Below, piece after piece: positions 8,923 to 46,556 of a stretch of DNA of 64,000 nt. Made by a program: the position numbers and the translations under genes. Origin of the DNA: a virus (lineage: Duplodnaviria; Caudoviricetes). Positions within the stretch are counted from its first letter, which is position 1. Each line of letters starts with the position of its first letter. The stretch covers positions 11,765 through 75,764 of IMG/VR virus record IMGVR_UViG_2974549060_000001. One strand, 5' to 3'. The notes beneath the pieces were generated by a model. It worked only from the letters and a program-made list of their open reading frames with translations, was not told where the DNA came from and ran no database searches.

Positions 8923-9642
8923 ATGAGTGATACCTCAATCATTCCTCAGAACACGACGTTAATTGACGTGTACTTGAAGAATCCGAATGGGCATCCACTT
9001 ACCCATACCCGTTTCATTGTTAAGCCAGTAAGAGCGGGCTATTGGAACGATTATGTTGGTGTTGTGGAAGATAAAGAGGAACTGTATTGTACGGATGAAA
9101 ATGGCTATGTGCAGCTACATTTGTGGCCTCTACCATATCCTTACATGCTGACCTATTCATATGATGACAATGCTGTACCGGGCTACTTTATGTTCTATGT
9201 ACCGGATACCCGCACCGTTGTTAATCTGCAAGATCTCATCGTTACTCAGACTAACGATCAGCCTACGTATGGTGAAGAGATCTTGGCTCAAATCGTAGCT
9301 GCTAAAGCTCAGGTAACTGCATTGGTCGATGAAGCTAAAGCTGCTGAATCTGGTGCGCAAGTTGCAGCGAGTGTTGCTACAACTGCTGCGATAAAAGCAA
9401 CTGAGAATGCCCAGTTGACTGATGTAGATCGAGAATATGTGAATGATGTGCAATTGACCTTACAAGCAATGTTTGGTCAAATGTCCGAAGCCATAATTAA
9501 AATTCAGGGTATCAATTTACAAAATAAATTGTTACTAGGTGGCTACCAACTATGGGTTGATGCTCAAGGTAGGTTGCGTATTAAAAATGGTGACCCGACT
9601 AGTGATACTGATGGCACTGTCGTGGGCACTCAAACTAGTTAA
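8923..9642 (+). CDS. short tail fibre / receptor-binding-protein anchor
   Basis: Ala-rich coiled-coil centre; C-terminal WVDAQGRLRIKNGDPTSDTDGTVVGTQT motif seen at tailspike C-termini. Confidence 0.65.
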   Translation: MSDTSIIPQNTTLIDVYLKNPNGHPLTHTRFIVKPVRAGYWNDYVGVVEDKEELYCTDENGYVQLHLWPLPYPYMLTYSYDDNAVPGYFMFYVPDTRTVVNLQDLIVTQTNDQPTYGEEILAQIVAAKAQVTALVDEAKAAESGAQVAASVATTAAIKATENAQLTDVDREYVNDVQLTLQAMFGQMSEAIIKIQGINLQNKLLLGGYQLWVDAQGRLRIKNGDPTSDTDGTVVGTQTS

Positions 9643-9653
9643 GGAGCAGTTAT

Positions 9654-12200
9654 ATGTGTAATTGTGAACCGTGGAATTGTGTTGAACAGGCTGTTAATGA
9701 CGTTTGGTCTACCAAACGAGGTCAGATCACAGGTCTGGTTGATCGCGCTGAGACTGCTGCTGATAATAGCGAGATAAGCGCGAAGGCGTCAGCCGATAGC
9801 GCTGTCGAAGCTAGGGAATTTCGTGATGAAGCAGAACTCGCAGCAACTACAGCAGTAGCTGCACAGACTGTTGTAGTTGGTGTAGCTACTTCTCTACAGA
9901 ATACTGCGGATAGTCTCGAACAAAGTGCAGAAGAACTCAGTAATGCTATTGCTGGTATTACTGTGGTTACTTGGTACTACACGGCTGTATCTGAAAATCA
10001 GACTGTAATTCCTGTGCCTGATGATAAAAACCAGATTGCTATTCAAGCAATCTATAGTGAAGGTGCCCGTAAGGAACCGGGGCCAAGTCGTGATTTTACT
10101 TACGATCCAGTTACAAAACAAATTACCCTAGTTGAAGGTATCCCGCTAGGGCAGGAAATAGCCATTATTCTCGGTGTTTACCCTGAGAACTCGGACGATA
10201 TTACTCATATCCTGGCTTCCTCTGCGGGTGCAGGTTTGATTGGTACTACCAATGGTAATACTGTTCAAGATGAGTTGAATAATAATCTTCTTAATGACCG
10301 TGAGCAATGGCGTCGTAGTCTTGCTGAGGCAGGCTTAACACTTGTTGATGGTAGCTTTGAGGAAGGGGCCACCGTTGCTTCTGCCACCGACGCGATTTGG
10401 CACGCCGCAGGCGGCCAGTGCTATACGTGGGGTGGGGCATTCCCGAAGACGGTTGATCCGGCGTCTACGCCTGCATCGAGCGGTGGGGTTTCGGGCACTG
10501 CATGGGTAAGCGTTACTGACCTGACGCTGCGTAGTGCGCTGGCGGGTGCTGGTGGTGCCGCTATGCTGGGTGCTGTATCTGGGAAAAATGTTCAGGAAGA
10601 GATTGATGATCTTCACGCTAAAGATGAATTGCTTACTGGTGAAGTTTCCATGCACAGTGCATCACTTGATGATCTGGCTTATTCGGCAATATCTTCTATT
10701 TCGGAGAAAATAAGCGAGATAAAAGTAAAGGATACAGAAAGATTATATGACGCATTTGGGAATACCGTTTATTACAAAGGGAGGAATTTATTCTCGTTTC
10801 GCCGCGCCAAGCTTCATTTTGGCGATACTACGCACATTAGTAGCCTATGTATCGGTGAGATATACGAAGATGGGAGCTATGCGATAATTTGGCAAAAAGA
10901 CTACCCAATTACAATTGATGCAAAAGACCCATTTCTTAGTATTGATAATGTGAGCGGGGGGCTGATTGTCAGCTATCAGTTAATGAATGTAGCTGAAAAT
11001 ACCTACCGTAATGCCGTTATTGGTGTCGTTGACTTAAGTAGCAGCGGTTCATTTATTACGAATTCAACAATAACAACGACCAGTGATTACTTTCTATGGG
11101 GTAATGTGTTAAGAACCCCTGCTGGTAAGTACATAACCACACGGTATGCTATTGACCATCAAAGCGTAGATATCATCACATCGTCAGATGCGAATTTAAA
11201 CGCCGGAACCACATGGTCAGTCGCGAGAACTTTTCTTCTTTCGGAGTTCGCAGGGAAAACCGCAATAAACGAAACATGTTTAGGATATTACAAAGGAATG
11301 CTAGTTGCAGTGACGCGAACTGGAAGCTCAACATCCAGCATGTCTACGATGCACATATCAAGAACAAATGATTTAACCGGAGCGTCGGGATGGATAAACT
11401 TTGGGACAAATGCTGGATATGCAGGGCCTCATATACCAGCGTACACCGACGAAGAAGACCCGCTTATCATAGTCGGGAGTGTATATAGGGACGGGGTTAG
11501 ATCTGACGTAAGCATGGCCTACACTTTCGATTTAGCCTCATTATCCACGCCGGTTACTATAGCTAAAATGCCAAGATTTAATGCATATGCATCAGCTAAG
11601 AAAGTCAGTAGCGGTATATGGTCGATGGTATTTTATACTGAATATGACGAAAACCCAGATGCCACTCATATTTATCATAAGTACTTCTACTTTGAATCAT
11701 TTTTGCGGCCTGATAATCAGACAAATAGGGGTAGTAATTGGGACTATTCATTTAATTCGGGTCATTCGGCGATTGGTAATCTTGGTGTTGTTAATTCAAT
11801 AACTTCTTCGCATGAGATATATTTCTCAATGCAGAGAAGCATGGATAACATAAAAGGAGTTCAATTTGTAGTTGGCCCTATGGCTGCAAGCAAGACGATA
11901 ACCCCTGTACTTTATCGATTAGATGGATCTCTATTCGCTTCTTGTGCATCCGTCACGATACCGGCAAGCCCAGAAAATCAAATTGTGACGGCGCTATTCA
12001 ATGCGGGTAACGTAACACTAAATGCGTTCTCTAGAATGAGGCTAAATCTATTATCTAGTAGTGATACATTACCTATCGGCTCCAGATCGCTTCCTTCCGG
12101 GCATCAACCTGGGATACCTCTCAACATTCCGTTTAACCTCTTCAACTCTGGCGGTCTAGCGTCTGCACCTTACTTTTTATTATCTTTGGTGACGCTGTGA
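9654..12200 (+). CDS. tailspike / receptor-binding protein with probable beta-propeller domain
   Basis: REQWRRSLAEAGLTLVDGSFEEGAT..YTWGGAFPK tailspike N-terminal domain; Asp-box-like SSDANLNAGTTW; AT-richer C-terminal two thirds. Confidence 0.85.
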   Translation: MCNCEPWNCVEQAVNDVWSTKRGQITGLVDRAETAADNSEISAKASADSAVEAREFRDEAELAATTAVAAQTVVVGVATSLQNTADSLEQSAEELSNAIAGITVVTWYYTAVSENQTVIPVPDDKNQIAIQAIYSEGARKEPGPSRDFTYDPVTKQITLVEGIPLGQEIAIILGVYPENSDDITHILASSAGAGLIGTTNGNTVQDELNNNLLNDREQWRRSLAEAGLTLVDGSFEEGATVASATDAIWHAAGGQCYTWGGAFPKTVDPASTPASSGGVSGTAWVSVTDLTLRSALAGAGGAAMLGAVSGKNVQEEIDDLHAKDELLTGEVSMHSASLDDLAYSAISSISEKISEIKVKDTERLYDAFGNTVYYKGRNLFSFRRAKLHFGDTTHISSLCIGEIYEDGSYAIIWQKDYPITIDAKDPFLSIDNVSGGLIVSYQLMNVAENTYRNAVIGVVDLSSSGSFITNSTITTTSDYFLWGNVLRTPAGKYITTRYAIDHQSVDIITSSDANLNAGTTWSVARTFLLSEFAGKTAINETCLGYYKGMLVAVTRTGSSTSSMSTMHISRTNDLTGASGWINFGTNAGYAGPHIPAYTDEEDPLIIVGSVYRDGVRSDVSMAYTFDLASLSTPVTIAKMPRFNAYASAKKVSSGIWSMVFYTEYDENPDATHIYHKYFYFESFLRPDNQTNRGSNWDYSFNSGHSAIGNLGVVNSITSSHEIYFSMQRSMDNIKGVQFVVGPMAASKTITPVLYRLDGSLFASCASVTIPASPENQIVTALFNAGNVTLNAFSRMRLNLLSSSDTLPIGSRSLPSGHQPGIPLNIPFNLFNSGGLASAPYFLLSLVTL

Positions 12201-28602: not shown

Positions 28603-29775
28603 TTAATCCTCGTCGGGCATTTTGAAATGCACGGCTTGTCCGAATGGGGGGATGAAGTTCGGATTGTTGTAAATTGCCCAGATCACTGGCTTACCAGGAT
28701 TAGGGACACTATGGAGATGGGCTATATAACCATCAGTTAGGACGATGAGCCATTTTGAGCCATCTTTGGTATAAGACTGCATCAGCTCGTCGATGACTGT
28801 ACCACCACCACCACCCATTTCAATTTTCAGCAGGGCTTTCAAATTACGGACACGGTTTTTGCTTACCAGCTTGTGGTCGAATTGCATAACGTCGATGTAG
28901 TCCGGGTTGAAGCCTTTCAGGACATGGTGAGTTTCACTTACGAAGAAGTTAAACACCTTTTCCGAGACGGAACCGGATACGTCCCAACCGAAAGAGCCTG
29001 GGCCTAAACCAGGAGAATATTGGCTTGGCAAATACATACCCATTGGTTGATAACGACGATTAGGTCTTGACCAGCTAAAGTCACCTTTAGTCATGGCAAA
29101 CATCAGACGACGAAGCACACGCTGCCAGGGAATGGCAGGCTTAAGGATACCGTCGATCAGACGCTGTAAGTCCGGGCCGATATTGCTTGGCATTTTGCCA
29201 GCCATCTCTGCCATCGCCTTACCACGCATAACCAGTTCTTCGACCTGCTGTTTGATCTGCTGACGTACTTCCTGCTCTTTCGGGCCTTTCGGCTCACGTA
29301 AGTCAGGTAGGGCACATCCAGCCATAGTACCACCGCCGCCAGCACCACCATTGGCTTTGTCCTCTTCTTCCAGTAGGCGATACACCTGCATAGTTGAGAG
29401 GTTGCGATACTGGGGATCGCAGAGGCCACCGGCAGGCATCTTCATGCCTACACTGGTGAGGATAAGGTTAATTACATGGTCAGCCGCACGGTTCCAACGG
29501 TCGGGATCCATACCTTTGGCACGTTCGGTGCAGTGCTCAAATGCAATATGCAGCCCCTCATGAGCAATCAGAAATTCACGCTCATCGTTGGTCAGCTTGC
29601 CGAAGAACTCTTCGTTGTAATAGCAGTTGAGGCCATCGGTGTACGCCGTCTGATTATCCGGGCTGTTGTCCACCAGATGTTTACTACCCATGATGATATG
29701 GGTGAAGAAGATCATTTCTTCTTTAGTCAAAAGACCAATTTTGGCCTTCGACATGAGTTTTCGGAAGTCCATCAT
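28603..29775 (-). CDS. metallopeptidase-vWA domain protein (N4 gp25-like)
   Basis: AYTDG, HEGLH (HExxH), NRAAD; MIDAS WDVSGS, GGGT, LTDGY. Confidence 0.9.
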   Translation of the reverse strand: MMDFRKLMSKAKIGLLTKEEMIFFTHIIMGSKHLVDNSPDNQTAYTDGLNCYYNEEFFGKLTNDEREFLIAHEGLHIAFEHCTERAKGMDPDRWNRAADHVINLILTSVGMKMPAGGLCDPQYRNLSTMQVYRLLEEEDKANGGAGGGGTMAGCALPDLREPKGPKEQEVRQQIKQQVEELVMRGKAMAEMAGKMPSNIGPDLQRLIDGILKPAIPWQRVLRRLMFAMTKGDFSWSRPNRRYQPMGMYLPSQYSPGLGPGSFGWDVSGSVSEKVFNFFVSETHHVLKGFNPDYIDVMQFDHKLVSKNRVRNLKALLKIEMGGGGGTVIDELMQSYTKDGSKWLIVLTDGYIAHLHSVPNPGKPVIWAIYNNPNFIPPFGQAVHFKMPDED

Positions 29776-30310
29776 CGTTACCTTTCAGTAGTCGGAGGGT
29801 TTTAAGTTCGACTGCCTCTTGGGTCAGTTCTCGCCAGGGAAGCTGGCTGAGGAACCTATCCAGGAGCAGCATATCTTTTTTAATGCCTTCGCGCGTATCA
29901 ACCACCATCCACTGATGAAGCATGAACATCGTTGGCCGAAGCCAGTAGTACATGTCCACCCGTGCCCGGTATAGCCCGGACTCTGGTTGCATTGGCTCTT
30001 TCGAGGCATTGATGATGCAATGCGGGATATAAGCCTCGGCCAGTTTCTCACCTGGCTTACCGGCTGTTGGTTTGATATAGCGATTAAAGAGGTAAAGGGG
30101 ATTAGACTGGAGGTAGTGATCAAATGATAACTGCATCTCGTCTTGCAGCGGCAGTATGATCCGCTTTGCCTCTTCCATGTAGAAAGAGGGAACTACCACG
30201 ATTATCTCTTCGGCTTTTTCGAACTGGGAAGCCCAGTTCTGTTCGTATTGACTTTTGAAATCACGCCCTGACATGCGAGGCGAGACATTCAGCCACGGAT
30301 CTTTGCTCAT
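29723..30310 (-). CDS. hypothetical protein
   Basis: 195-aa ORF with RBS GAGG. Confidence 0.65.
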   Translation of the reverse strand: MSKDPWLNVSPRMSGRDFKSQYEQNWASQFEKAEEIIVVVPSFYMEEAKRIILPLQDEMQLSFDHYLQSNPLYLFNRYIKPTAGKPGEKLAEAYIPHCIINASKEPMQPESGLYRARVDMYYWLRPTMFMLHQWMVVDTREGIKKDMLLLDRFLSQLPWRELTQEAVELKTLRLLKGNDDGLPKTHVEGQNWSFD

Positions 30311-36073: not shown

Positions 36074-36316
36074 TTATTTAAGTTTGAAGCGGAGCGTCTG
36101 GGTGTTGTCCTGATGATTCAGTACAGATTGAATCTCGGCTAGGCCATGATCTTTCAACACCAGAACAGCATCGGCTATGTTGGTGAAATCACCGGCCAGC
36201 TCAATGATCTTAAGCCCTAAGAGCTTTTTGGTCTTGAACTCATCCAGCTTGGCCTGAGTCAGGTATATGATCTGGGTGTTTTGTGTAACATGCTGATAAC
36301 CTAAGAACTGAGCCAT
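36074..36316 (-). CDS. small early protein, RTxxLL-motif family
   Basis: YLTQAKLDEFKTKKLLG. Confidence 0.75.
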   Translation of the reverse strand: MAQFLGYQHVTQNTQIIYLTQAKLDEFKTKKLLGLKIIELAGDFTNIADAVLVLKDHGLAEIQSVLNHQDNTQTLRFKLK

Positions 36317-36318
36317 AT

Positions 36319-36561
36319 CTACTCCCGGTACAATCGAATAAGGTTATCCTCCCCGTCCTTGTAGACAGCGACACCTACCACACCGAAGGTGGGCAGATGG
36401 ACTCGCATGACTTCCTCTTGACGATGGGCCGGTGTGATACGCACTCCCACTTCTTGTAGTCCAGCTAACAGGCTGGCTTTGGTTGTGGACACCAGGGACA
36501 GCGGGATATTCATTCTCCCGACTGGCACGTTGTCACTAGGTAGTTTGTGTAAAAGTTCCAT
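36319..36561 (-). CDS. small early protein
   Basis: 80-aa ORF with RBS GAGG; weak echo of the family motif (IPLSLVSTTKASLLAG). Confidence 0.7.
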   Translation of the reverse strand: MELLHKLPSDNVPVGRMNIPLSLVSTTKASLLAGLQEVGVRITPAHRQEEVMRVHLPTFGVVGVAVYKDGEDNLIRLYRE

Positions 36562-36577
36562 AATTGATACCTCAATG

Positions 36578-36601
36578 AAATAGCCACCCTTCGGGGTGGC
36601 T
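36578..36601 (-). terminator. terminator after RNAP2 operon
   Basis: AGCCACCC-CGAA-GGGTGGCTATTT on the minus strand. Confidence 0.7.
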
Positions 36602-36606
36602 GGTGA

Positions 36607-36804
36607 TTATTTTGGGTACTTCGGATCATTCTCTTTAAGCCAGAGAACGTGCTTATTGTAAACGTTAACCAGACGGTTATACTCACCGCCTGTAACGATG
36701 TTGATTACGTCGATGCCACACTGATACATGTACGTGAGGTTATCGAACGCAATACGTGCTTTTCTGGCTTGACGCTTGTGCCACCAGACTTTAAGAAAGT
36801 GCAT
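36607..36804 (-). CDS. hypothetical protein
   Basis: Start moved to MHFLKVWW. Confidence 0.6.
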   Translation of the reverse strand: MHFLKVWWHKRQARKARIAFDNLTYMYQCGIDVINIVTGGEYNRLVNVYNKHVLWLKENDPKYPK

Positions 36805-38071
36805 AGTTTGAGTTCCTAATTTTGTCACCCAGGTCTGGGGACAGTTTGTCGTAGACACCATCAGTGGTCTGATATAACTGGTTCATGAGCATAGCCAGCA
36901 TCTCGCTATCAGCGAAGTCGGCTATGATCTCTTTGTACCAGTAACGGGTGATATCGCAGTTGTTTGCATGGCAACCGAACGCATCATGCACCGTGATAAC
37001 CGGAAACGGTTTGTAAGTCAGCATGTCGTCGGTGATGCTTACCAGTTTGTTCAGCATCCAGTCTGGCAGCTTGTGAACGTTGTCAGCAGTCAGCAGAGGC
37101 AGCAGAGACAGGTCAGCAATTTTCGCTTTCATGCCCAGCTTCGCCAGAGTGGTGAAGTCATCTACTTCACCCAGAGCCTGCTTCTTCGTGCCGGAGGCAC
37201 GCATTTGCTGAGCGCTGACCAGTATCTCACTAGCAACGCACACAACCGCAGGATCGTAGTTGCAACGACGCTCAATGCCACGCAGGAGATAGGCATCACA
37301 GCCATGAATGGTATTAGCAACGTTGGCCCGGCCACGTTCAGTACCCTCATTCACTTTGTATTGCAGAGTGAAGGTAGCGTGGTCGAGTTCATCCACTTCA
37401 ATTCTGGTTTCCTTCGTTTCCATGACCTTAATCACGGCAGTGAACCCATCCGGGAACACCAGCGTGTGATTAAGGGCGAATGGACGCCATGAACCCAGGA
37501 GTTCATCCATTAACTGGAAGGCACCAGGGGCGATAATCATCGCTGCATTGTAGAACGTGTCCAGCATGTCACCTTCACCGAATACACGCTTTGGCACGGC
37601 CTTTGAGCCGTAGCCAGAGGTCATTACGGCTTGTTTCACGTCCTTACGTGGAACAGTGATGGTAGCGTGTCCAGACTCCAGCAGTAGCCTGTTCATCTCG
37701 GTGGTGGTGTTGCTATACGCATCCATACGCTGACGCGGATCAATCATGCCAGTGTTGTAGGCACCAGCAATGCAGCCAGTCAGGGCTGACATAATCTGGA
37801 TACCAGAACAGCAGGCATCGAAGTGTACGATGTGGCCTACGGCCAGACCGCGACGAGCACGGTCAATTACCATACTGGCTTTACGGAACAGCTCTGGTTC
37901 CTCAGCTTTATCAGCCAGCAGATCCAGGTTGTCGATGTTATCTTCAATAAACTGAATGCGAGTTTCGAACAGCTCTTTGTCCATGCCATAGTGGTTGGCA
38001 GCATCAATGCAGAGATACTCCCAGCCATTGAAACGTTGGAAGCCAGTACCGAAGTTGATAGTATGTTGCAT
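36791..38071 (-). CDS. RNA polymerase II subunit 2 (N4 gp16-like), T7-like catalytic half
   Basis: Motif A HFDACCSGIQ, motif B RKDVKQAVMTSGYG, motif C VHDAF. Confidence 0.95.
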   Translation of the reverse strand: MQHTINFGTGFQRFNGWEYLCIDAANHYGMDKELFETRIQFIEDNIDNLDLLADKAEEPELFRKASMVIDRARRGLAVGHIVHFDACCSGIQIMSALTGCIAGAYNTGMIDPRQRMDAYSNTTTEMNRLLLESGHATITVPRKDVKQAVMTSGYGSKAVPKRVFGEGDMLDTFYNAAMIIAPGAFQLMDELLGSWRPFALNHTLVFPDGFTAVIKVMETKETRIEVDELDHATFTLQYKVNEGTERGRANVANTIHGCDAYLLRGIERRCNYDPAVVCVASEILVSAQQMRASGTKKQALGEVDDFTTLAKLGMKAKIADLSLLPLLTADNVHKLPDWMLNKLVSITDDMLTYKPFPVITVHDAFGCHANNCDITRYWYKEIIADFADSEMLAMLMNQLYQTTDGVYDKLSPDLGDKIRNSNYALS

Positions 38072-38081
38072 AAGTTAATCC

Positions 38082-38744
38082 TCATTTCCTGAAATTTAAC
38101 GAGAAACCGTCTAAGTGGTTTTCTGTGATGTACTTATCACGAGCCATAGCAGCTTCGACCTCGGTACTATAACGTCCCAGGTTTTTGGCTTTGCCGTGAA
38201 TTTTTATAATTGATAGCCATTTATTTGTTTGTTTACAACGGCTTACACCAATGTATTTGGATGATGTACCCGATTTTTTACGTCGGTTACGCTGTTGCAG
38301 GTATTCTGTAACCCAGGTGCAATTTGAAGGCCCGTAGTTGCCATCAGGGTCTTTTCTCTCAATGGTTAGTACGTCGCAATAACCTGCTTGCATAGCCCAA
38401 CCATAGAAAGCCTCAAAGCTATCCAACCATTCTTTGCATACAGTAACCCCTTTACCCCCATAATTGTGGTAACCACTTATATTTGGGTTACTACACCGAT
38501 TGATCATACCTTTGTAGATCTTGTAAATTCGAGATGTGGACTGACCGTGTTTGGTAATAACTTCTTGGTTGTAACAACCACATGAAGTTGTTTCCCCCCT
38601 ACGTAAGCTATTGAGCAGTACAATTTTTTCTTTCCCACAATCACATTTAACCCACACTCTACGGTCTTTAGTGCAAGACTCGGCATCATCAGTAATGATT
38701 AAACGGCCATATACTTCACCCACTACATTTTTTCTTGGTTTCAT
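38082..38744 (-). CDS. HNH-AP2 homing endonuclease between the RNAP subunits
   Basis: CDCG..TTSCGC, YGGKGVTVCKEW, IERKDPDGNYGPSNCTW, SSKYIGVS; AT-rich. Confidence 0.9.
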   Translation of the reverse strand: MKPRKNVVGEVYGRLIITDDAESCTKDRRVWVKCDCGKEKIVLLNSLRRGETTSCGCYNQEVITKHGQSTSRIYKIYKGMINRCSNPNISGYHNYGGKGVTVCKEWLDSFEAFYGWAMQAGYCDVLTIERKDPDGNYGPSNCTWVTEYLQQRNRRKKSGTSSKYIGVSRCKQTNKWLSIIKIHGKAKNLGRYSTEVEAAMARDKYITENHLDGFSLNFRK

Positions 38745-39727
38745 TTACGTTTGAACTCCTCTGGTACTCCAGTGACAACCTCCGTATCAGCTAAGTTGAT
38801 CGAGGCTTTTTTGAAAGATGTCCCCTGGCAGTTAATGTGATAACCTTGAGAGTACATTCTACCCCTTTTATCAACTTTATTCGACAAATAGAACCGGTTG
38901 CCCTGGTTCACCATGAGCGAGTAGAAGTAATAGGACTGCTCTTTGTAAGCAGCCCAGTTATCCTTCTGCTTACGGATCATGTCGGCTACCTGCCAATCGG
39001 ATAAATCCTCGTCGCTCTCAATAGAATCGAGATCGTGAGTTGGTTCCTCTTCCACTGTACATAGGAACTCCACATCCAGGGACAGAGGAACGCTATTGCG
39101 TGAATTGAGTACATCAAGGCAGATGTTTCCGTCATGATGGTTGAACCCTCCACCCAGGATGAGCGAGTCGTTCTGGTGGGTGTAATAGGCGGTTGAACGG
39201 TTGTTCACGAGCTTCTGAGGCTCACAAACCAGTGGTGGCAAATAGCATGAATATGCAATGAAATTGCCTAACTCTTCACTAAAGGTGATGTTACTTTGAA
39301 TCTGGATTGGGCTGTTACGGTGACGTTTGATGAGGTCAAACACATCGGTTTCAGCCAATACAGCCAGCACTTCGGCAATGGTCTGCACGCTATCACGCTT
39401 ATCGTCGAAGCCGATGCGTGAAGCCAGTTGACCAATGGCATTGACCAGTGGAGTCTCGGCCTGGAAGTACACGACACCCACGAATATCTCGGTGACGAGT
39501 TTTTCCAGATCCAGTTGAGCCAGATGATGTAGACGGACAGCTTTGCTGTCGTAATACTGCTCGGCCATCCACTGTTTCAGTAGTTCCACACCCTGTGCCA
39601 CTTCTGGCAGCAGATTCTCTTCACCTTCAAACAACTCCTTACGGATGTATCCGTCGATATGACGGCGATTAAACTGCCTCTCGTTTATGAGCTGTAATTC
39701 TTTAGGCGGTAACCACTTATGTTCCAT
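38741..39727 (-). CDS. RNA polymerase II subunit 1 (N4 gp15-like)
   Basis: YLPPLVCEP, FYLSNKVDKRGRMYSQGY. Confidence 0.93.
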   Translation of the reverse strand: MEHKWLPPKELQLINERQFNRRHIDGYIRKELFEGEENLLPEVAQGVELLKQWMAEQYYDSKAVRLHHLAQLDLEKLVTEIFVGVVYFQAETPLVNAIGQLASRIGFDDKRDSVQTIAEVLAVLAETDVFDLIKRHRNSPIQIQSNITFSEELGNFIAYSCYLPPLVCEPQKLVNNRSTAYYTHQNDSLILGGGFNHHDGNICLDVLNSRNSVPLSLDVEFLCTVEEEPTHDLDSIESDEDLSDWQVADMIRKQKDNWAAYKEQSYYFYSLMVNQGNRFYLSNKVDKRGRMYSQGYHINCQGTSFKKASINLADTEVVTGVPEEFKRK

Positions 39728-39733
39728 ACGTCC

Positions 39734-40153
39734 TCACTGAGCAAAGCGAATAAAGATTTTCCATACACCACGTTTAGGGTTAACGCAGAGTGTTGTTACT
39801 ACGATTCCACCGGCCATATATAAGTGGCGACGTTTGTGATCCTCCTTGATTTGGTCGGCCCAATACACTATCCCGGTAATAGTGAAGTGGTGGGGTTGAG
39901 GCATCAGTAACCACCTAGTTTTAATTTCATCCATCAGTGCCTGCGAAATCTTCAATGCCCGGTTATCACCTCTGGCTTGCAGATACTGCGGCTCAGTTAC
40001 TGTTTGTAGCTCCAGCGATTCATGCAGAGCTTCTCCATACTGTTGGGCATATCTACCCATTTGGCTTTTACCAATACGTCTACCATACCTAATCTCGTTA
40101 GCCATATCACCCCAACGCTCTGCTTCACGCTTACGATTCTCTTTGTAGCCCAT
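39734..40153 (-). CDS. hypothetical protein
   Basis: 139 aa; GRRIGKS motif. Confidence 0.65.
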   Translation of the reverse strand: MGYKENRKREAERWGDMANEIRYGRRIGKSQMGRYAQQYGEALHESLELQTVTEPQYLQARGDNRALKISQALMDEIKTRWLLMPQPHHFTITGIVYWADQIKEDHKRRHLYMAGGIVVTTLCVNPKRGVWKIFIRFAQ

Positions 40154-40162
40154 TAGTCACCC

Positions 40163-40447
40163 CTATAGTCTTAACCATGTTTGATAATCAGCTTCCGAAT
40201 ACTCAGTATCCACTGACTGCTTTACGGCTTTCAGTTCTTTCAACTGGGCACCACGAGTACGCTGTGGGTCAGTGTCTTCCATCAGCTCAATGTGGTCTTC
40301 ACAAGCGTAATGCTTGTACGTGTCACGCGTACCCATACGTGGGGCATAACGTGTCATACGTGTTGCTACGCGCTTAATTCCTAATGCTTTGCAGAACTTG
40401 CAATAGGTATGGCACTTGGCCTTACTGGTTTCAGCAGACATACACAC
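40163..40447 (-). CDS. Cys/His-containing hypothetical protein
   Basis: CKFCK..YACEDH. Confidence 0.65.
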   Translation of the reverse strand: MCMSAETSKAKCHTYCKFCKALGIKRVATRMTRYAPRMGTRDTYKHYACEDHIELMEDTDPQRTRGAQLKELKAVKQSVDTEYSEADYQTWLRL

Positions 40448-40451
40448 CTCA

Positions 40452-40479
40452 ATAAAACAGCCATCCCCGAAGGGATGGC
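40452..40479 (-). terminator. intrinsic terminator
   Basis: GCCATCCC-TTCG-GGGATGGC-TGTTTTATT. Confidence 0.8.
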
Positions 40480-40486
40480 ATGTGGC

Positions 40487-40783
40487 TTACGCGAGTTCGA
40501 ACTTCTGACCTTCCGGCGTTGCTTCGCCATAGGACAGTACGATACGAGATGCCAGAGCTTTCAGTCGCTTTTCAACGTCTGCATCAGACTTACAGTCTTT
40601 CAGTATGTCGATGATCATGCCTTCCAGCGGGTGAGTTTCACGCAGGCCGATACCCTGACCACCCAAGCGTTTCAAGCCCTGTTTGGTCATGATGCCAATG
40701 TTCAGATAGCCCGCAACTTTGTTACGGTTAGCGTCAGTAGCAGGAGTGTTTGCAGCAGAAGAACGACGATTGAAACCAGCCAT
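40487..40783 (-). CDS. possible N4 gp2-like ssDNA-binding RNAPII cofactor
   Basis: KVAGYLNIGI resembles the recalled gp2 KAQFWLNIGY; early position behind its own hairpin; start at MAGFNRR. Confidence 0.45.
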   Translation of the reverse strand: MAGFNRRSSAANTPATDANRNKVAGYLNIGIMTKQGLKRLGGQGIGLRETHPLEGMIIDILKDCKSDADVEKRLKALASRIVLSYGEATPEGQKFELA

Positions 40784-40846
40784 GATAAGTACCTCGATGA
40801 ATGAGTAGAAGAATGATGGGCGATTTTGCCCTTGATTTACCACACA

Positions 40847-40861
40847 AGGCGCTATGCGCCT
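40847..40861 (-). promoter_or_regulatory. triloop hairpin promoter candidate
   Basis: AGGCGC-TAT-GCGCCT on the template (+) strand; C at the predicted +1. Confidence 0.5.
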
Positions 40862-41143
40862 CTAACAGATGACTAAGCAGCTCACACGAGATTGCCAGCC
40901 TGCATAAGCAACGGAACTGCTTTCGATTTGGTCGTTGAAGGCCATCAGGTCTTCGAACGCTTCACGGCCCAAAACAGAGGCAGCAACCTCCGTCTGAGTA
41001 GCTAAAGACAGGTCGGTCATGACCAGTTGGGTCAGACCTTTACGGAACAGGAATAATGCCAGGTCACGCATTTCACCATCACGCCATGCACGAGCACACC
41101 AGCGAAGGTTTGTTTGAGCGTGGTCAATATTCATAGTCGGCAT
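40862..41143 (-). CDS. hypothetical early protein
   Basis: 93-aa ORF. Confidence 0.65.
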   Translation of the reverse strand: MPTMNIDHAQTNLRWCARAWRDGEMRDLALFLFRKGLTQLVMTDLSLATQTEVAASVLGREAFEDLMAFNDQIESSSVAYAGWQSRVSCLVIC

Positions 41144-41209
41144 ACAGTTTTCCTTTAGGGGTAGACGTGGACACCAGCAGCCCCGATATCCACGATAATT
41201 GTTCTATGT

Positions 41210-41226
41210 AACGCGCTATGCGCGTT
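41210..41226 (-). promoter_or_regulatory. triloop hairpin promoter candidate
   Basis: AACGCGC-TAT-GCGCGTT. Confidence 0.5.
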
Positions 41227-41509
41227 GGTTTTCACCAACCACGTAGAGCAGATGCACCGGTATTACTGGGTACAGCCCCAGCAAACATTTAGTCGCTAAT
41301 GGGTATCTTTCATCCTTTGGAATAATGAACGTGTAGTACACGCCAGCATGTCGAAACAGGTAGGATTCATTGATGTCCATTTGAGATGGGGTGTAAGCAA
41401 ACACACTGAGATCGGCAAGAATCGTGCCTTCATCAACAGATGTTATCTGGTTTATATCCCAGTCGATTACTGCGGTTAACTCTTTGGATTTATAAGTATG
41501 TTCAGCCAT
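41216..41509 (-). CDS. small early protein with degenerate RTxxLL motif
   Basis: IIPKDERYPLATKCLLG near the C-terminus. Confidence 0.7.
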   Translation of the reverse strand: MAEHTYKSKELTAVIDWDINQITSVDEGTILADLSVFAYTPSQMDINESYLFRHAGVYYTFIIPKDERYPLATKCLLGLYPVIPVHLLYVVGENQRA

Positions 41510-41814
41510 TACATGCCCTTAATTGCCACCTCCACCATCGTTACCTCTGGCTTCTTGAGCATGTGATGGGTCACATACACCGCAAGGATAAGGAACTTGC
41601 TTTCGATACCAGGGATGGTAATGAGTTGTTGGACGGCTCCGGCCAGATTGTTCGGGCCTAAGTTGAACTTATTCAGGTTGATGGGCATAGTGCCCTTCCA
41701 CTCGAATTTAGGTGTCAGCAGACGCAGTGTACGCAGTTCGTCATACTGGCTGGCAGATAGCCAGCCCAGTGACTCCCCGTCGCTCACACGAAACAGAGCG
41801 TGCTCTGTAATCAT
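41509..41814 (-). CDS. small early protein, RTxxLL-motif family
   Basis: WLSASQYDELRTLRLLT. Confidence 0.75.
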   Translation of the reverse strand: MITEHALFRVSDGESLGWLSASQYDELRTLRLLTPKFEWKGTMPINLNKFNLGPNNLAGAVQQLITIPGIESKFLILAVYVTHHMLKKPEVTMVEVAIKGM

Positions 41815-42134
41815 ATATACGGTTCCCCACTCGAATCGACTGGAGGCTTATATTTCAGCCACCACTTCATCAGTGTTTTACGGTTAACAGTACGGATTGC
41901 TGCCTCTGGATCGAATACCTTCCCACGCCAATGTTCCGGGCAATCCCGGTATACTGGGACAGGTGGATTACCTGCCTCAAACCAGTAAACAATGGTTGGG
42001 AAGTCAAACTCCAGGTCAGGCATAATCAGTTGCTGGGTACGAATTTGATCGAACTCATCCTGGGTCATGGTTGTTTCAGCAATAAGCTGAATACCAGTAC
42101 CAGCACGTTTAAGTACGTCACGTAGTATTATCAA
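41811..42134 (-). CDS. small early protein, RTxxLL-motif family
   Basis: TMTQDEFDQIRTQQLIM. Confidence 0.75.
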   Translation of the reverse strand: MIILRDVLKRAGTGIQLIAETTMTQDEFDQIRTQQLIMPDLEFDFPTIVYWFEAGNPPVPVYRDCPEHWRGKVFDPEAAIRTVNRKTLMKWWLKYKPPVDSSGEPYI

Positions 42135-42424
42135 AATGGAATATCCGTTGTGATATTAAAATGCCACATTACTGGCACGACTTGATGCACATTGAGCTTA
42201 AGTATCTCGTCACTATCCGGGTCACAAGAACCCTCCAGCCACTGACCATTACCCAAATCCAGGTATGAAGTAATACCGTGGTCAGACTTAAAAGTATCTG
42301 CACGCATCTTCACTTTCTGGCTTTGTCCAGTCAGTAGCATTAAGGTACGAATATAATCAAGCTCGGCATCCCCCAAATGACATACCAGTCGGCTAAAGCC
42401 TATGGCACGGAGTTGATAACTCAT
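42131..42424 (-). CDS. small early protein, RTxxLL-motif family
   Basis: HLGDAELDYIRTLMLLTG. Confidence 0.75.
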   Translation of the reverse strand: MSYQLRAIGFSRLVCHLGDAELDYIRTLMLLTGQSQKVKMRADTFKSDHGITSYLDLGNGQWLEGSCDPDSDEILKLNVHQVVPVMWHFNITTDIPF

Positions 42425-42690
42425 CTGCGGAATCTCGCTATAAGCTCCCCATTCTTTTGGAAGTAGGGGAAGTTAATTGGCCCACTATCTAATTGAAGGA
42501 AACTACTATTTGCTGTTACCAACATATGTGGAATAGGCAATTGAGTTTTCTCAAGGATAGTGGCATCTACGATACAGTCTTCAATACCCAACAAATGCTG
42601 GGTACGAATATTATCTACCAGCTCATCGGTCACCTCGAAATAACGGTGACCATTATCGTTAACACTGATTGCACGAGCAAATTTACGCAT
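42421..42690 (-). CDS. small early protein, RTxxLL-motif family
   Basis: EVTDELVDNIRTQHLLG. Confidence 0.75.
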   Translation of the reverse strand: MRKFARAISVNDNGHRYFEVTDELVDNIRTQHLLGIEDCIVDATILEKTQLPIPHMLVTANSSFLQLDSGPINFPYFQKNGELIARFRR

Positions 42691-42693
42691 AAG

Positions 42694-42996
42694 CTACTCG
42701 AAGTAGATAAAGACGTTGAGGTCTTCTGAGGTGGGACAGCTATAATCCATAACATCAGCAACAGGTACATTGAGATGGATACGGAAACCAGCATCAGGGA
42801 TGTTATACATACGATGTAAATCACCCCCAAATAACGCTATGCGGTCAGTTTCCATTATTAACAATGGCAATTTAGTAAACCAATTATGGGCACCTAGTAA
42901 CCGACGTGTGCGTATTTGTTTAATATCATCAGGCGTCAATGTAGCAATGAATGTATATTTGTACGCCTGATAGCAGAGATTTACTGGGTGCCCCAT
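42694..42996 (-). CDS. small early protein, RTxxLL-motif family
   Basis: TLTPDDIKQIRTRRLLG; start moved to MGHPV (RBS GGAG). Confidence 0.72.
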   Translation of the reverse strand: MGHPVNLCYQAYKYTFIATLTPDDIKQIRTRRLLGAHNWFTKLPLLIMETDRIALFGGDLHRMYNIPDAGFRIHLNVPVADVMDYSCPTSEDLNVFIYFE

Positions 42997-43352
42997 GTCT
43001 TGTGCTCCGGTAGGCACCATGACCACGCTGAGTCAAAGTAACAATTGAATGGGGCTTCACGGAATAACGGAGCTATTTGGTTGGCTTTATATCCAGCTAG
43101 CCCGCAACCAATCTGAGTTACCTGGAACTCAAGTTCAGGATGCTCTTTGGCATACTTCACGAAGTCATCAATATGAGTCTGGATATCAGCCAGACGTAGG
43201 ACTTCCATAGCCCAGCCTTTGGTGGGAATAGCGTAGCTATTACCGAAATGGCCGATGCCTTCACCCCATGCAGCACCCTCATGGAATACTGCATGTTTAG
43301 CGGCACCAGCACCGTGGATACCACGGAGATTACTTCCGAATACGAATATCAT
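42981..43352 (-). CDS. macrodomain-like (ADP-ribose-binding fold) protein
   Basis: IFVFGSNLRGIHGAGAA, SYAIPT, VTQIGCGLAG. Confidence 0.75.
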   Translation of the reverse strand: MIFVFGSNLRGIHGAGAAKHAVFHEGAAWGEGIGHFGNSYAIPTKGWAMEVLRLADIQTHIDDFVKYAKEHPELEFQVTQIGCGLAGYKANQIAPLFREAPFNCYFDSAWSWCLPEHKTWGTQ

Positions 43353-43732
43353 GGATCAGACCTGTTCAGTTGTTCGATCATTAAGTTCAGTGCTTTACGT
43401 TGACGGCCAACCGGCAATTCACCGTTAACACGGATGGATGCAAACCAGTTCTCACGCTTCATGATGGTGTACGTATTAGCGTCACCACCTTCACGTAACC
43501 AGTATTTTGGTGGGTCAAGGGTGAAGTTGGTAATAACATCACCACGGCAATATTTATCCTCGTCTGCACATTCATCGAATACTTCGAGAATGGTTGAGCA
43601 GGTTGAGGGAATATTATCCTCTGGATACCACCAGCGAAATTGTCGCCAGAATGTGCGTAGTACATACGGGAACTGGTTATCTTTAATAAACCAGAGCATT
43701 AGGTACTCGAATATACGTTTTCTCATTTGCAC
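43349..43732 (-). CDS. hypothetical protein
   Basis: Coupled ORF. Confidence 0.6.
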   Translation of the reverse strand: MQMRKRIFEYLMLWFIKDNQFPYVLRTFWRQFRWWYPEDNIPSTCSTILEVFDECADEDKYCRGDVITNFTLDPPKYWLREGGDANTYTIMKRENWFASIRVNGELPVGRQRKALNLMIEQLNRSDP

Positions 43733-44394
43733 TCCACATAAGCGAATATCACGATTTCAATGTCCAGGTCTTTACGAGCTTCGACCTGTGCATCACGGTC
43801 TTCAAGCTGAGACTTACCATAAGGTGATAACCAATAGTCAGGATCAGCTGAGTTGTACAGTCCGTCGAGTGTTCCACGACGCCACTTAATCAGATAACGA
43901 TGAGCAGCAAGATGGGATTTAAAGTATTGAGCTTTATACACATCTTCTTCGGTAAACTCTCTGGCTTCATCACCCATAGTCTTACGAGATATGAGGCGAT
44001 GGGTCAGGTATTTACCGGTGGCTTTATCACGCAGGAAGAACATGCCTTTGAACGTCATGCTTGGTTTCTCAACCAGACGTAGCATGGTAATTTCCATGTC
44101 CTCACGCTGACGTGTGGGCACTGCGACTGGTGCTTCCGGGTATGTCCAGTAATACGAGCCATACTCGTCGCCATCCCAGTCTTCGCCTTTAGGCACATAG
44201 CCTTTGAGCCAACCTGTCAGGTAGATCCTGGCATGTCGCAGCTCACGGAATACACGAGGCCAGACTAAGCGTGGGTCGATGGGTTCCACATAGGAACCAC
44301 CACGGCCACGGCTGGACTTGGGCATAGGCAGAAATTCATTACGTCGTTTAACGGCATACACATGCTGAGTTAACATCAGTTCCTCCGCATCCAC
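43723..44394 (-). CDS. hypothetical protein with internal duplication
   Basis: RVFRELRHARIYLTGWLKG / QYFKSHLAAHRYLIKWRRG. Confidence 0.7.
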   Translation of the reverse strand: MDAEELMLTQHVYAVKRRNEFLPMPKSSRGRGGSYVEPIDPRLVWPRVFRELRHARIYLTGWLKGYVPKGEDWDGDEYGSYYWTYPEAPVAVPTRQREDMEITMLRLVEKPSMTFKGMFFLRDKATGKYLTHRLISRKTMGDEAREFTEEDVYKAQYFKSHLAAHRYLIKWRRGTLDGLYNSADPDYWLSPYGKSQLEDRDAQVEARKDLDIEIVIFAYVECK

Positions 44395-44618
44395 GATTCA
44401 ACGGGTTCAATGTGGAATTGCCAGTGGTTATTACCCAGGTATTCCACGGAATAGTAATTACCCATATGGTGAGTTTGATCCTTACCCATATGGTTAATAC
44501 TTACAGCCGGAGCATCAATGACATTAACACCCAATAGTTTGAGTGTACGCATTTGATCCATCATGGCTTTAGTCAGCCAGATACCTTTACCGGTCTTACG
44601 ACATTTGAGCTTTTGCAT
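44376..44618 (-). CDS. small early protein, RTxxLL-motif family
   Basis: WLTKAMMDQMRTLKLLG. Confidence 0.75.
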   Translation of the reverse strand: MQKLKCRKTGKGIWLTKAMMDQMRTLKLLGVNVIDAPAVSINHMGKDQTHHMGNYYSVEYLGNNHWQFHIEPVESWMRRN

Positions 44619-44889
44619 AGGCTTCCTCCACTAATTTACGGAGCGATGTCATAGCAGCATTACAGTCCTCACCTGGTTTAGAGATGTGGGTAATTTCAGA
44701 CGGTGTACCGTCTTCCAGAGTCAGGCCAATATCTGCATACAGAATATGACCATCACGGCCATCGGATTCCATAGACAGCTTAACGCCTTTTTCTTTGAAA
44801 TAGATTTCGTCATCAAGGTTAATATTACGCAGCTCAATAGTTATGCGGCTACCATAAGGACGCAGGAATACCAAACATTCGATACTCAT
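44596..44889 (-). CDS. hypothetical protein
   Basis: 97-aa coupled ORF. Confidence 0.65.
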   Translation of the reverse strand: MSIECLVFLRPYGSRITIELRNINLDDEIYFKEKGVKLSMESDGRDGHILYADIGLTLEDGTPSEITHISKPGEDCNAAMTSLRKLVEEAYAKAQMS

Positions 44890-45128
44890 AGGAATAACTC
44901 CTCTAAATCAGTGGATGGTTCAAACTTAAGGGATACCATTGCAGTCATAGGCTGTACCTCTGGCTCAATACCCGATAAGACTTGTGTTCGGATTTGAGAC
45001 AGTACATCTTCCCTCGTTAACTCAGTAACAAGGTCAGTGATATTTAATTCGATAGTACCGTCTTTAATATAACGGCGAAGGATGACTTCATGAACGGCCA
45101 TAGGATTTAGTCCAGTTGGAAAACTCAT
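44886..45128 (-). CDS. small early protein, RTxxLL-motif family
   Basis: ELTREDVLSQIRTQVLSG. Confidence 0.65.
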   Translation of the reverse strand: MSFPTGLNPMAVHEVILRRYIKDGTIELNITDLVTELTREDVLSQIRTQVLSGIEPEVQPMTAMVSLKFEPSTDLEELFL

Positions 45129-45942: not shown

Positions 45943-45976
45943 GATTAATACCTCTGGTTTAATAGGATTCACCCGA

Positions 45977-45989
45977 CGTGCTATGCACG
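45977..45989 (-). promoter_or_regulatory. triloop hairpin promoter candidate
   Basis: CGTGC-TAT-GCACG; C at the predicted +1. Confidence 0.5.
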
Positions 45990-46004
45990 CCAGGCTTTGA
46001 TTAT

Positions 46005-46505: not shown

Positions 46506-46539
46506 AGCTGTAACTCCATAGTGAATTAGATAATCACTT

Positions 46540-46556
46540 ATAGTGCTATGCACTAT
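46540..46556 (-). promoter_or_regulatory. triloop hairpin promoter candidate
   Basis: ATAGTGC-TAT-GCACTAT; C at the predicted +1. Confidence 0.5.

Follow-up and report, generated by a model that had tools for sequence, protein, structure and literature searches.

In the early region of a phage genome, at least nine small genes encode proteins that share one stretch of 16 residues and little else that is visible by eye, which raises the question of what this stretch marks and why it was kept. The genes lie in a stretch of 64,000 nucleotides (nt), here called the window, that covers positions 11,765 to 75,764 of IMG/VR record IMGVR_UViG_2974549060_000001 (Duplodnaviria; Caudoviricetes). Between positions 40000 and 46000, the window is ~93% identical to the Pectobacterium phages CB4, CB3, and Nepra, 89% to Possum and Horatius, 81% to Kosakonia phage Kc283, and 78% to E. 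coli phage EK8. The relatives with a recorded genus (CB4, CB1, Kc283, and EK8) belong to Cbunavirus, family Schitoviridae, and as judged by sequence the window is likewise that of an N4-like Cbunavirus. A preliminary description of this DNA took the shared stretch for a docking helix attached to unrelated, target-capturing parts. Our analysis suggests that the motif probably marks a lineage-specific family of small single-domain alpha/beta scaffold proteins, tandemly duplicated early accessory proteins in which the core helix was conserved.

Every peptide that the preliminary description had quoted for its eight copies was found in a minus-strand open reading frame (ORF) at the expected place, and a regular expression for the core of the motif recovered these eight together with a ninth strong copy, in ORF 39734–40153, that the description had missed. 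All members are on the minus strand between 36074 and 45128 and are 80 to 139 amino acids (aa) long. They follow one pattern: a strand, Thr or Ser, a 13-residue helix with h-D-x-h-[RK]-T-x2-L-[LI], and then Gly or a turn; the short form of the motif is LT-x4-D-x-I-RT-x2-LLG. In the order of transcription, the members are as follows.

44886–45128, minus strand: member, 80 aa, LTREDVLSQIRTQVLSG, with a one-residue insertion in the motif; motif segment 44934–45038; PHROG 23171.
44376–44618, minus strand: member, 80 aa, the most central copy, WLTKAMMDQMRTLKLLG; motif segment 44493–44597; PHROG 25598.
42694–42996, minus strand: member, 100 aa, first gene of a six-gene tandem array, TLTPDDIKQIRTRRLLG; motif segment 42856–42960.
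42421–42690, minus strand: member, 89 aa, EVTDELVDNIRTQHLLG; motif segment 42550–42654; PHROG 23352.
42131–42424, minus strand: member, 97 aa, HLGDAELDYIRTLMLLT; motif segment 42293–42397; start overlaps the upstream stop by 4 nt; PHROG 27528.
41811–42134, minus strand: member, 107 aa, TTG start, TMTQDEFDQIRTQQLIM; motif segment 41985–42089; 4-nt overlap with the upstream gene; PHROG 24685.
41509–41814, minus strand: member, 101 aa, WLSASQYDELRTLRLLT; motif segment 41677–41781; 4-nt overlap with the upstream gene; PHROG 27457.
41216–41509, minus strand: degenerate member, 97 aa, last gene of the array, motif near the C-terminus, IIPKDERYPLATKCLLG; PHROG 22111.
39734–40153, minus strand: ninth member, 139 aa, ISQALMDEIKTRWLLM at residues 69–84; motif segment 39866–39970; PHROG 35035.
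36074–36316, minus strand: member, 80 aa, YLTQAKLDEFKTKKLLG; motif segment 36179–36283; PHROG 24879.

The array at 43026–41216 consists of six consecutive head-to-tail genes with overlaps of 1–4 nt or a 3-nt gap. The ORF of its first gene is open up to a GTG at 43026; the orthologues and the PHROG profile, which aligns with residues 11–110 of this longer ORF, begin at the ATG at 42996 (100 aa). The insertion in the motif of member 44886 was already noted in the preliminary description; the orthologues of this gene begin at the second Met and are 71 aa long. Outside the array, member 39734–40153, in which a basic N-terminal extension precedes the motif, lies directly upstream of the RNAPII small-subunit gene, and member 36074 lies downstream of the RNAPII large-subunit gene. 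The isoelectric points (pI) of the members range from 4.4 to 9.8, five of the nine being acidic (pI 4.4–6.3).

The significance of the motif was assessed with a leave-one-out position-specific scoring matrix (PSSM), in which each copy was scored with a matrix made from the other copies against 817 other six-frame segments of the 75.8-kb genome. Six of the nine copies scored above every nonmember, two were beaten by one segment each, and member 44886, scored without a gap despite its insertion, was beaten by 14. Against 2000 shuffles of each protein, the nine ORFs gave z values of 2.7–9.2 (5.1–9.2 without 44886), and the observed score was reached by 0–1 of the 2000 shuffles per copy (28 of 2000 for 44886); the copies are thus significant against shuffled sequence. 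At every conserved residue (Leu, Arg, Thr, Ile, and Gly), synonymous codons vary between the copies, indicating that the repeat lies in the protein and not in the DNA, and a DNA-level repeat was rejected on this ground. The ratio of nonsynonymous to synonymous substitution rates (dN/dS) of the members was 0.04–0.37 against the orthologues in Kc283, EK8, and a Logan contig, L014 (0.09–0.12 for RNAPII), indicating that they are genuine genes under purifying selection. A multicopy family of small proteins in the early region, as first described, is supported by the PSSM, the shuffles, and dN/dS alike. A chance resemblance, or a repeat at the DNA or RNA level inside unrelated ORFs, could be argued for from the shortness of the motif and from the fact that each member falls in its own PHROG. 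However, with z values of 5–9 against shuffles, top ranks among the 817 segments, differing codons, dN/dS below 0.4, and orthologues that keep the motif down to ~50% identity, this explanation is refuted for practical purposes, and we give it next to no weight.

Weaker candidates were scored in the same manner. The degenerate copy in 41216 was marginal but supported (4 of 1000 shuffles reached its score, and hhalign aligned it with 42694 at the motif with a probability of 21%). The copy suggested as possible in 36319–36561 showed no motif signal, its score being reached by 773 of 1000 shuffles. This minus-strand ORF of 80 aa is kept in all Cbunavirus genomes examined, and its CB4 orthologue adjoins CB4 gp27, a true extra member. 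The best nonmember match, LTEAAQNQIETRNLLG at residues ~475–490 of the virion RNA polymerase (RNAP), encoded upstream of the window, reached 15.5 bits (3 of 500 shuffles); it was not significant proteome-wide and is probably due to chance. A motif-like stretch in the 195-aa protein at 29723–30310 was discarded (384 of 1000 shuffles).

The preliminary description had called the remainder of each protein unrelated by eye. At the level of sequence this holds: neither all-against-all blastp nor hhalign of orthologue-family profiles detected full-length homology between members. Among 153 profile pairs, the best 22 all joined member to member, one of them involving the degenerate 41216, whereas pairs of a member with a nonmember had a median probability of 0.2%. 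The pair 36074 and 44376 reached a probability of 86%. Every alignment among members was centered on the motif, and nearly all covered 14–33 columns (54–57 in two low-probability pairs). As a description of the sequences, one constant element in an otherwise diverged set is therefore apt. Each member belongs to its own function-unknown PHROG (24879, 27457, 24685, 27528, 23352, 30060, 25598, 23171, 35035, and 22111), and the only cross-matches among these were weak ones between 24879 and 25598. Within orthologue sets, the motif and the rest of the protein were conserved at 84 versus 72%, 74 versus 61%, and 62 versus 52%, and the motif was retained in orthologues down to ~50% identity. The statement that no described family carries this signature was supported by Pfam, NCBIfam, and PDB sequence searches, all of which were empty. 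The motif profile found nothing below E = 0.45 in the PDB sequences, with a weak match to a peptidase inhibitor I9-type propeptide (beta-alpha-beta half), 8c4x_B (AKLTDDQLSKLRT), at E = 1.6. An ESM Atlas feature search with 42421 returned no usable match, and a literature search found no paper that describes the family.

Two members were modeled with AlphaFold2. For 44376 (5 sequences; predicted local distance difference test score, pLDDT, 64), the predicted structure comprised strands 2–5 and 12–15, helix 17–28, strand 33–37, a low-confidence loop, and strands 56–62 and 65–70. For 42421 (11 sequences; pLDDT 81.7; predicted template modeling score, pTM, 0.70), it comprised strands 2–9 and 15–19, helix 22–33, strand 38–41, and five short strands up to residue 86. 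Motif and helix coincide exactly in both models, with Thr as the N-cap and Gly as the C-cap. The two models share a strand-strand-helix-strand start and C-terminal strands, and in each the helix is predicted to lie within a compact domain. By eye, all nine members end, after a turn, in a short stretch in which hydrophobic and polar residues alternate and which often contains Trp (for example, WKIFIRF, WQFHIEP, MWHFNIT, and NVFIYFE), and a copy in Klebsiella phage cp20 likewise ends in EWQLRLIR. This stretch looks like a second, weaker common element, the last beta-strand of the fold.

Searches against solved structures with VIA-align gave best Z values of only 3.4 and 4.1 (R3H-, Smr-, and Alba/S8-like domains), where the stated noise level of the tool is a typical best Z of 7–8 for unmatched models, and Foldseek returned no PDB match at E ≤ 1e-3. 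The predicted domain thus appears to be without a solved relative. Among predicted viral structures (BFVD), by comparison, the two models led to one and the same small group of Cbunavirus proteins, including their own orthologues. The best neighbors were other motif families, as assigned by length and phage name and not by sequence, with alignments of 68–98 columns for models of 80 and 89 residues. These included an 87-aa protein (template modeling (TM) scores 0.67 and 0.59; identity 24% and 15%), the CB1 104-aa variant of the 44376 family, and proteins of 97 and 100 aa. Proteins of 137 aa (Possum), 141 aa, and 147 aa (Nepra) matched both models; they have the sizes of the 39734 family, to which they were assigned by length alone, the 141-aa entry being as long as the 39734-type ORF of Kc283. 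The 44376 model matched a 42421 orthologue (TM 0.54, 84 columns), and the 42421 model matched an 82-aa protein of Klebsiella phage P184 (TM 0.58/0.62, probability 0.98), again assigned by length and phage name. P184 gp015 is the only 82-aa coding sequence in the early stretch examined and is a homologue of a cp20 protein with a degenerate motif. Beyond the motif, then, the two modeled members agree with each other and reach TM scores of 0.45–0.67 to other motif families, suggesting a common fold that is predicted rather than solved, and the parts that look unrelated in sequence are probably not unrelated in structure.

To see which face of the helix is conserved, we compared 38 copies from four phages, taking 100 degrees for each residue. 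Hydrophobic residues occupy Arg-4, Arg-1, Arg+4, and Arg+5, with Asp at Arg-3 and Thr at Arg+1, and all of these, together with the Arg, share one arc of ~240 degrees; the Arg sits between two Leu-type positions, one turn off on each side. The opposite positions (Arg-5, Arg-2, Arg+2, and Arg+3) are variable and mostly polar. Across the 38 copies, Arg was found in 32 and Lys in 6, Thr in 37, and Leu at Arg+4 in 36. Because the conserved face carries the hydrophobic positions, it is expected to pack on the sheet and not to face solvent.

These results suggest that the shared helix is most likely, on the evidence of the models, the core helix of a common small fold and not a free docking peptide. 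The 16 conserved residues would comprise the end of a strand, the Thr/Ser N-cap, the amphipathic helix, the Leu-Leu-Gly C-cap, and the lead into the following strand, and together they may form the folding core of the shared scaffold, which would explain why the motif survived while the rest diverged beyond sequence recognition. Tandem duplication of genes in the early region of Cbunavirus and Efbeekayvirus may have given rise to the family (about 70–150 aa); the six-gene array and a copy number that varies between relatives (an extra gp17-type gene in CB4 and L014, gp27 in CB4, and 4554–4799 in EK8) fit such an origin. The paralogues would be early accessory proteins made from virion-RNAP transcripts, and the diverged surface of each one, formed by loops and C-terminal strands, may bind a different host or phage factor in host takeover or anti-defence. 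The preliminary description had itself named the buried core helix of one shared known fold as an outcome that would overturn docking; the models, the BFVD neighbors, and the helix face agree with most of this, the exception being that the fold is not a known one.

Several points weigh against this interpretation. The burial of Asp, Arg, and Thr is deduced from helical periodicity and not from model coordinates, and a role in structure alone would not usually call for an invariant Thr and a near-invariant Arg halfway along a helix. In orthologue comparisons, the advantage of the motif over the remainder of the protein in conservation is only modest. The evidence for the fold consists of two predictions, one of them of low confidence, each made from a shallow alignment (5 sequences in one case and 11 in the other). 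Moreover, several of the BFVD matches have TM scores of only 0.45–0.55, which could be obtained from the N-terminal half alone, and the scoring of Foldseek includes amino-acid identity, so that the motif itself lifts the ranking.

Given how little Arg-Thr varies in Cbunavirus, a shared functional site, an oligomer interface, or a nucleic-acid contact may still be considered. If the helix were a constant docking module for one partner (a phage AAA+/vWA machine, an RNA polymerase, or a host protease), each variable part would recruit a different target and the proteins would form an adaptor library. Arg and Thr are kept more strictly (R32/K6 and T37 of 38) than a generic amphipathic helix would lead one to expect, the genes of the family sit together and are presumably co-transcribed with other early genes, and the wide charge spread of the members (pI 4.4–9.8) is as expected for proteins with different targets. 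However, both models put the helix inside a compact domain, packed on the sheet, and the conserved polar residues share a face with four hydrophobic positions while the other face is variable. The structural neighbors align over most of their length, so the variable parts probably have the same fold. Furthermore, Efbeekayvirus exchanges Arg-Thr (for Gln-Thr, Met-Ala, or Lys-Val) yet retains the strand-helix-Gly-strand order, and no larger protein with the motif as an appended module was found among 1.84 billion proteins. Docking is therefore, in our estimation, an unlikely function of the helix. Similarly improbable is a version in which near-invariant Asp, Arg, and Thr form a shared site at the rim of the helix, in a new fold, and contact one partner such as the virion RNA polymerase, RNAPII, or a host hub protein. 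If true, the array would supply adaptors or regulators that are interchangeable and act on a single machine while the host is taken over, which is near what the preliminary description proposed.

The conserved face might also serve as a subunit interface, with homo-oligomers or hetero-oligomers forming among the paralogues of the translationally coupled array and the motif being kept for assembly. An arc of ~240 degrees is wider than a single sheet-packing face needs, and six head-to-tail members with overlapping stops and starts are an arrangement often tied to stoichiometric co-production. On the other hand, members outside the array (36074, 39734, 44376, and 44886) have the same motif, and copy sets that differ between related phages fit independent units better than a fixed hetero-complex; we think such assembly has a small chance of being the explanation. 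A small nucleic-acid-binding fold (R3H-, Smr-, Alba-, or LSm-like), in which early RNA- or DNA-binding regulators touch nucleic acid through Arg-Thr, draws on the R3H domains among the top solved matches of both models (1ug8, Z 3.4 and 4.0; 2lrr, Z 2.9 and 4.0), after which the Smr, Alba, and S8-type RNA-binding domains rank. All of these Z values are ≤ 4.1, below the stated noise level, the R-x3-H signature is absent, Leu being the residue four after Arg, and there was no Sm/Hfq chain in either top-50 list and no Tevenvirinae protein in the BFVD lists. In addition, five of the nine members are acidic (pI 4.4–6.3), and the full pI range of 4.4–9.8 speaks against one uniform nucleic-acid-binding role; we consider this reading unlikely.

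The core-helix family was followed across related phages. Every Cbunavirus examined has it, in 9–12 copies. CB4 has the nine families and two more (gp17 and gp27); CB1 has the 104-aa variant of the 44376 family and, at the position of 39734, a 147-aa protein carrying LMGRLRTIALLMP. Kc283 has nine members, as does L014 with the gp17-type gene included, and EK8 has about nine, including two unannotated ORFs and the further family at 4554–4799. The two unannotated ORFs, at ~9460–9729 and 11323–11571 on the minus strand of EK8, are orthologues of 42421 and 44886 that lie in gaps of the deposited annotation. In the sister genus Efbeekayvirus of Klebsiella (cp20 and P19-618; RNAPII 60–62% identical), a hidden Markov model (HMM) found weak degenerate copies such as IKQLRTQYMLGIKE and VKAIQTKLAIGIKPE, and two more were found by eye; these are the copies with replaced Arg-Thr mentioned above. 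In the four other Schitoviridae sampled (N4, Acinetobacter phage Presley, E. coli phage Jgk1, and Pseudomonas phage CRC2), the early regions were scanned locally with the HMM and gave nothing convincing.

An exhaustive profile search of 1.84 billion representative proteins gave 12 matches at E ≤ 1e-3, of which nine were Cbunavirus members, including relatives of 42131, 41509, 39734, and 36074; the 35-column profile is blind to diverged copies in this library, and the result bounds close relatives only. The other three were long or repeat-rich proteins matched in 5–7 separate stretches and were taken as artefacts (two of the three sequences were inspected). In IMG/VR, the 42421 protein found one near-identical contig, and five matches to the back-translated strict motif, all in short or stop-containing frames, were discarded as chance. 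In the genomes sampled and the close-relative profile search, the family is confined to the Cbunavirus/Efbeekayvirus lineage. A metagenomic 102-aa relative of 41509–41814 (P0007) has an identical first 56 residues followed by an unrelated Arg/Pro-rich tail and is most likely a frameshifted or mis-assembled copy. Synonymous divergence (dS) was uneven along the region: to Kc283 it was 0.31 for 42694 versus 2.2 for 42131, and to EK8 it was 0.25 for 44376 and saturated for 42131. Such several-fold differences between neighboring genes (41216–45128) to one relative indicate that the early array is a recombination mosaic.

Expression of the members was considered by comparison with the annotated N4-type early promoters of CB4, which gave the following hairpins.

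46527–46556: hairpin, 24/30 match to an annotated CB4 N4-type early promoter.
45963–45992, minus strand: hairpin, 30/30 identical to an annotated CB4 early (virion-RNAP) promoter; the members between 45128 and 41216 lie downstream of it.
40835–40864, minus strand: hairpin, 29/30 match to a second annotated CB4 early promoter, upstream of the unit with member 39734–40153.

Given these promoter-matching hairpins, the members from 45128 to 39734 are expected to lie in units read by the injected virion RNA polymerase, and their early expression is thus predicted from homology to the CB4 promoters. Between the two RNAPII subunit genes of the window lies a minus-strand ORF of 220 aa (38082–38744) whose N-terminus is rich in Cys and which has a weak Pfam match to the AP2 DNA-binding domain (E = 8e-5, not passing the cut-off). 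The two RNAPII genes are adjacent in CB4, CB1, and Kc283, so this ORF looks like a homing-endonuclease insertion specific to the phage of the window.

Phages keep functions in host takeover and anti-defence in expanded families of small early proteins, most of which are uncharacterized. If the targets of the present family were identified, they would give a set of natural binders on one scaffold. The family has a clear diagnostic motif; yet a lineage-specific paralogue family without an assigned function is common in phage genomes.

Compared with known folds, the ribbon-helix-helix proteins (Arc/MetJ/CopG) have a similar strand, helix, and Gly, but in both models a strand (33–37 and 38–41) and not helix B follows the Gly, and no Pfam ribbon-helix-helix match was found at E up to 1. 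The R3H domain resembles the models as a small alpha/beta domain with a helix packed on a short sheet and was their recurrent top solved match. However, the comparison reached Z values of only 3.4–4.0 (root-mean-square deviation 3.0–3.5 Å over 51–60 residues), below the noise level of the tool, there was no Pfam match, and the Arg and His spaced by three residues are not present, since Leu stands four after Arg in 36 of the 38 copies. The LSm fold has a helix at its N-terminus and, after it, an antiparallel sheet of five strands with a strong bend. In the 42421 model, short strands up to residue 86 come after the helix (22–33), but neither model had an Sm/Hfq chain among its best 50 matches in 48,161 representatives, and Pfam gave no LSM match. 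A parallel exists with GoF, MotB.1, and Frd.2 of T4, a predicted LSm-like family of Tevenvirinae early proteins (PMC12152347), where several small early proteins with very dissimilar sequences likewise share one small predicted fold and are largely without assigned function. With no Sm/Hfq chain in the PDB top-50 lists and no Tevenvirinae protein in the BFVD lists of either model, the T4 family offers a good analogy, and the fold searches do not support a relationship; in the present family, a beta-hairpin at the N-terminus precedes the helix, and the sequences retain a clear motif.

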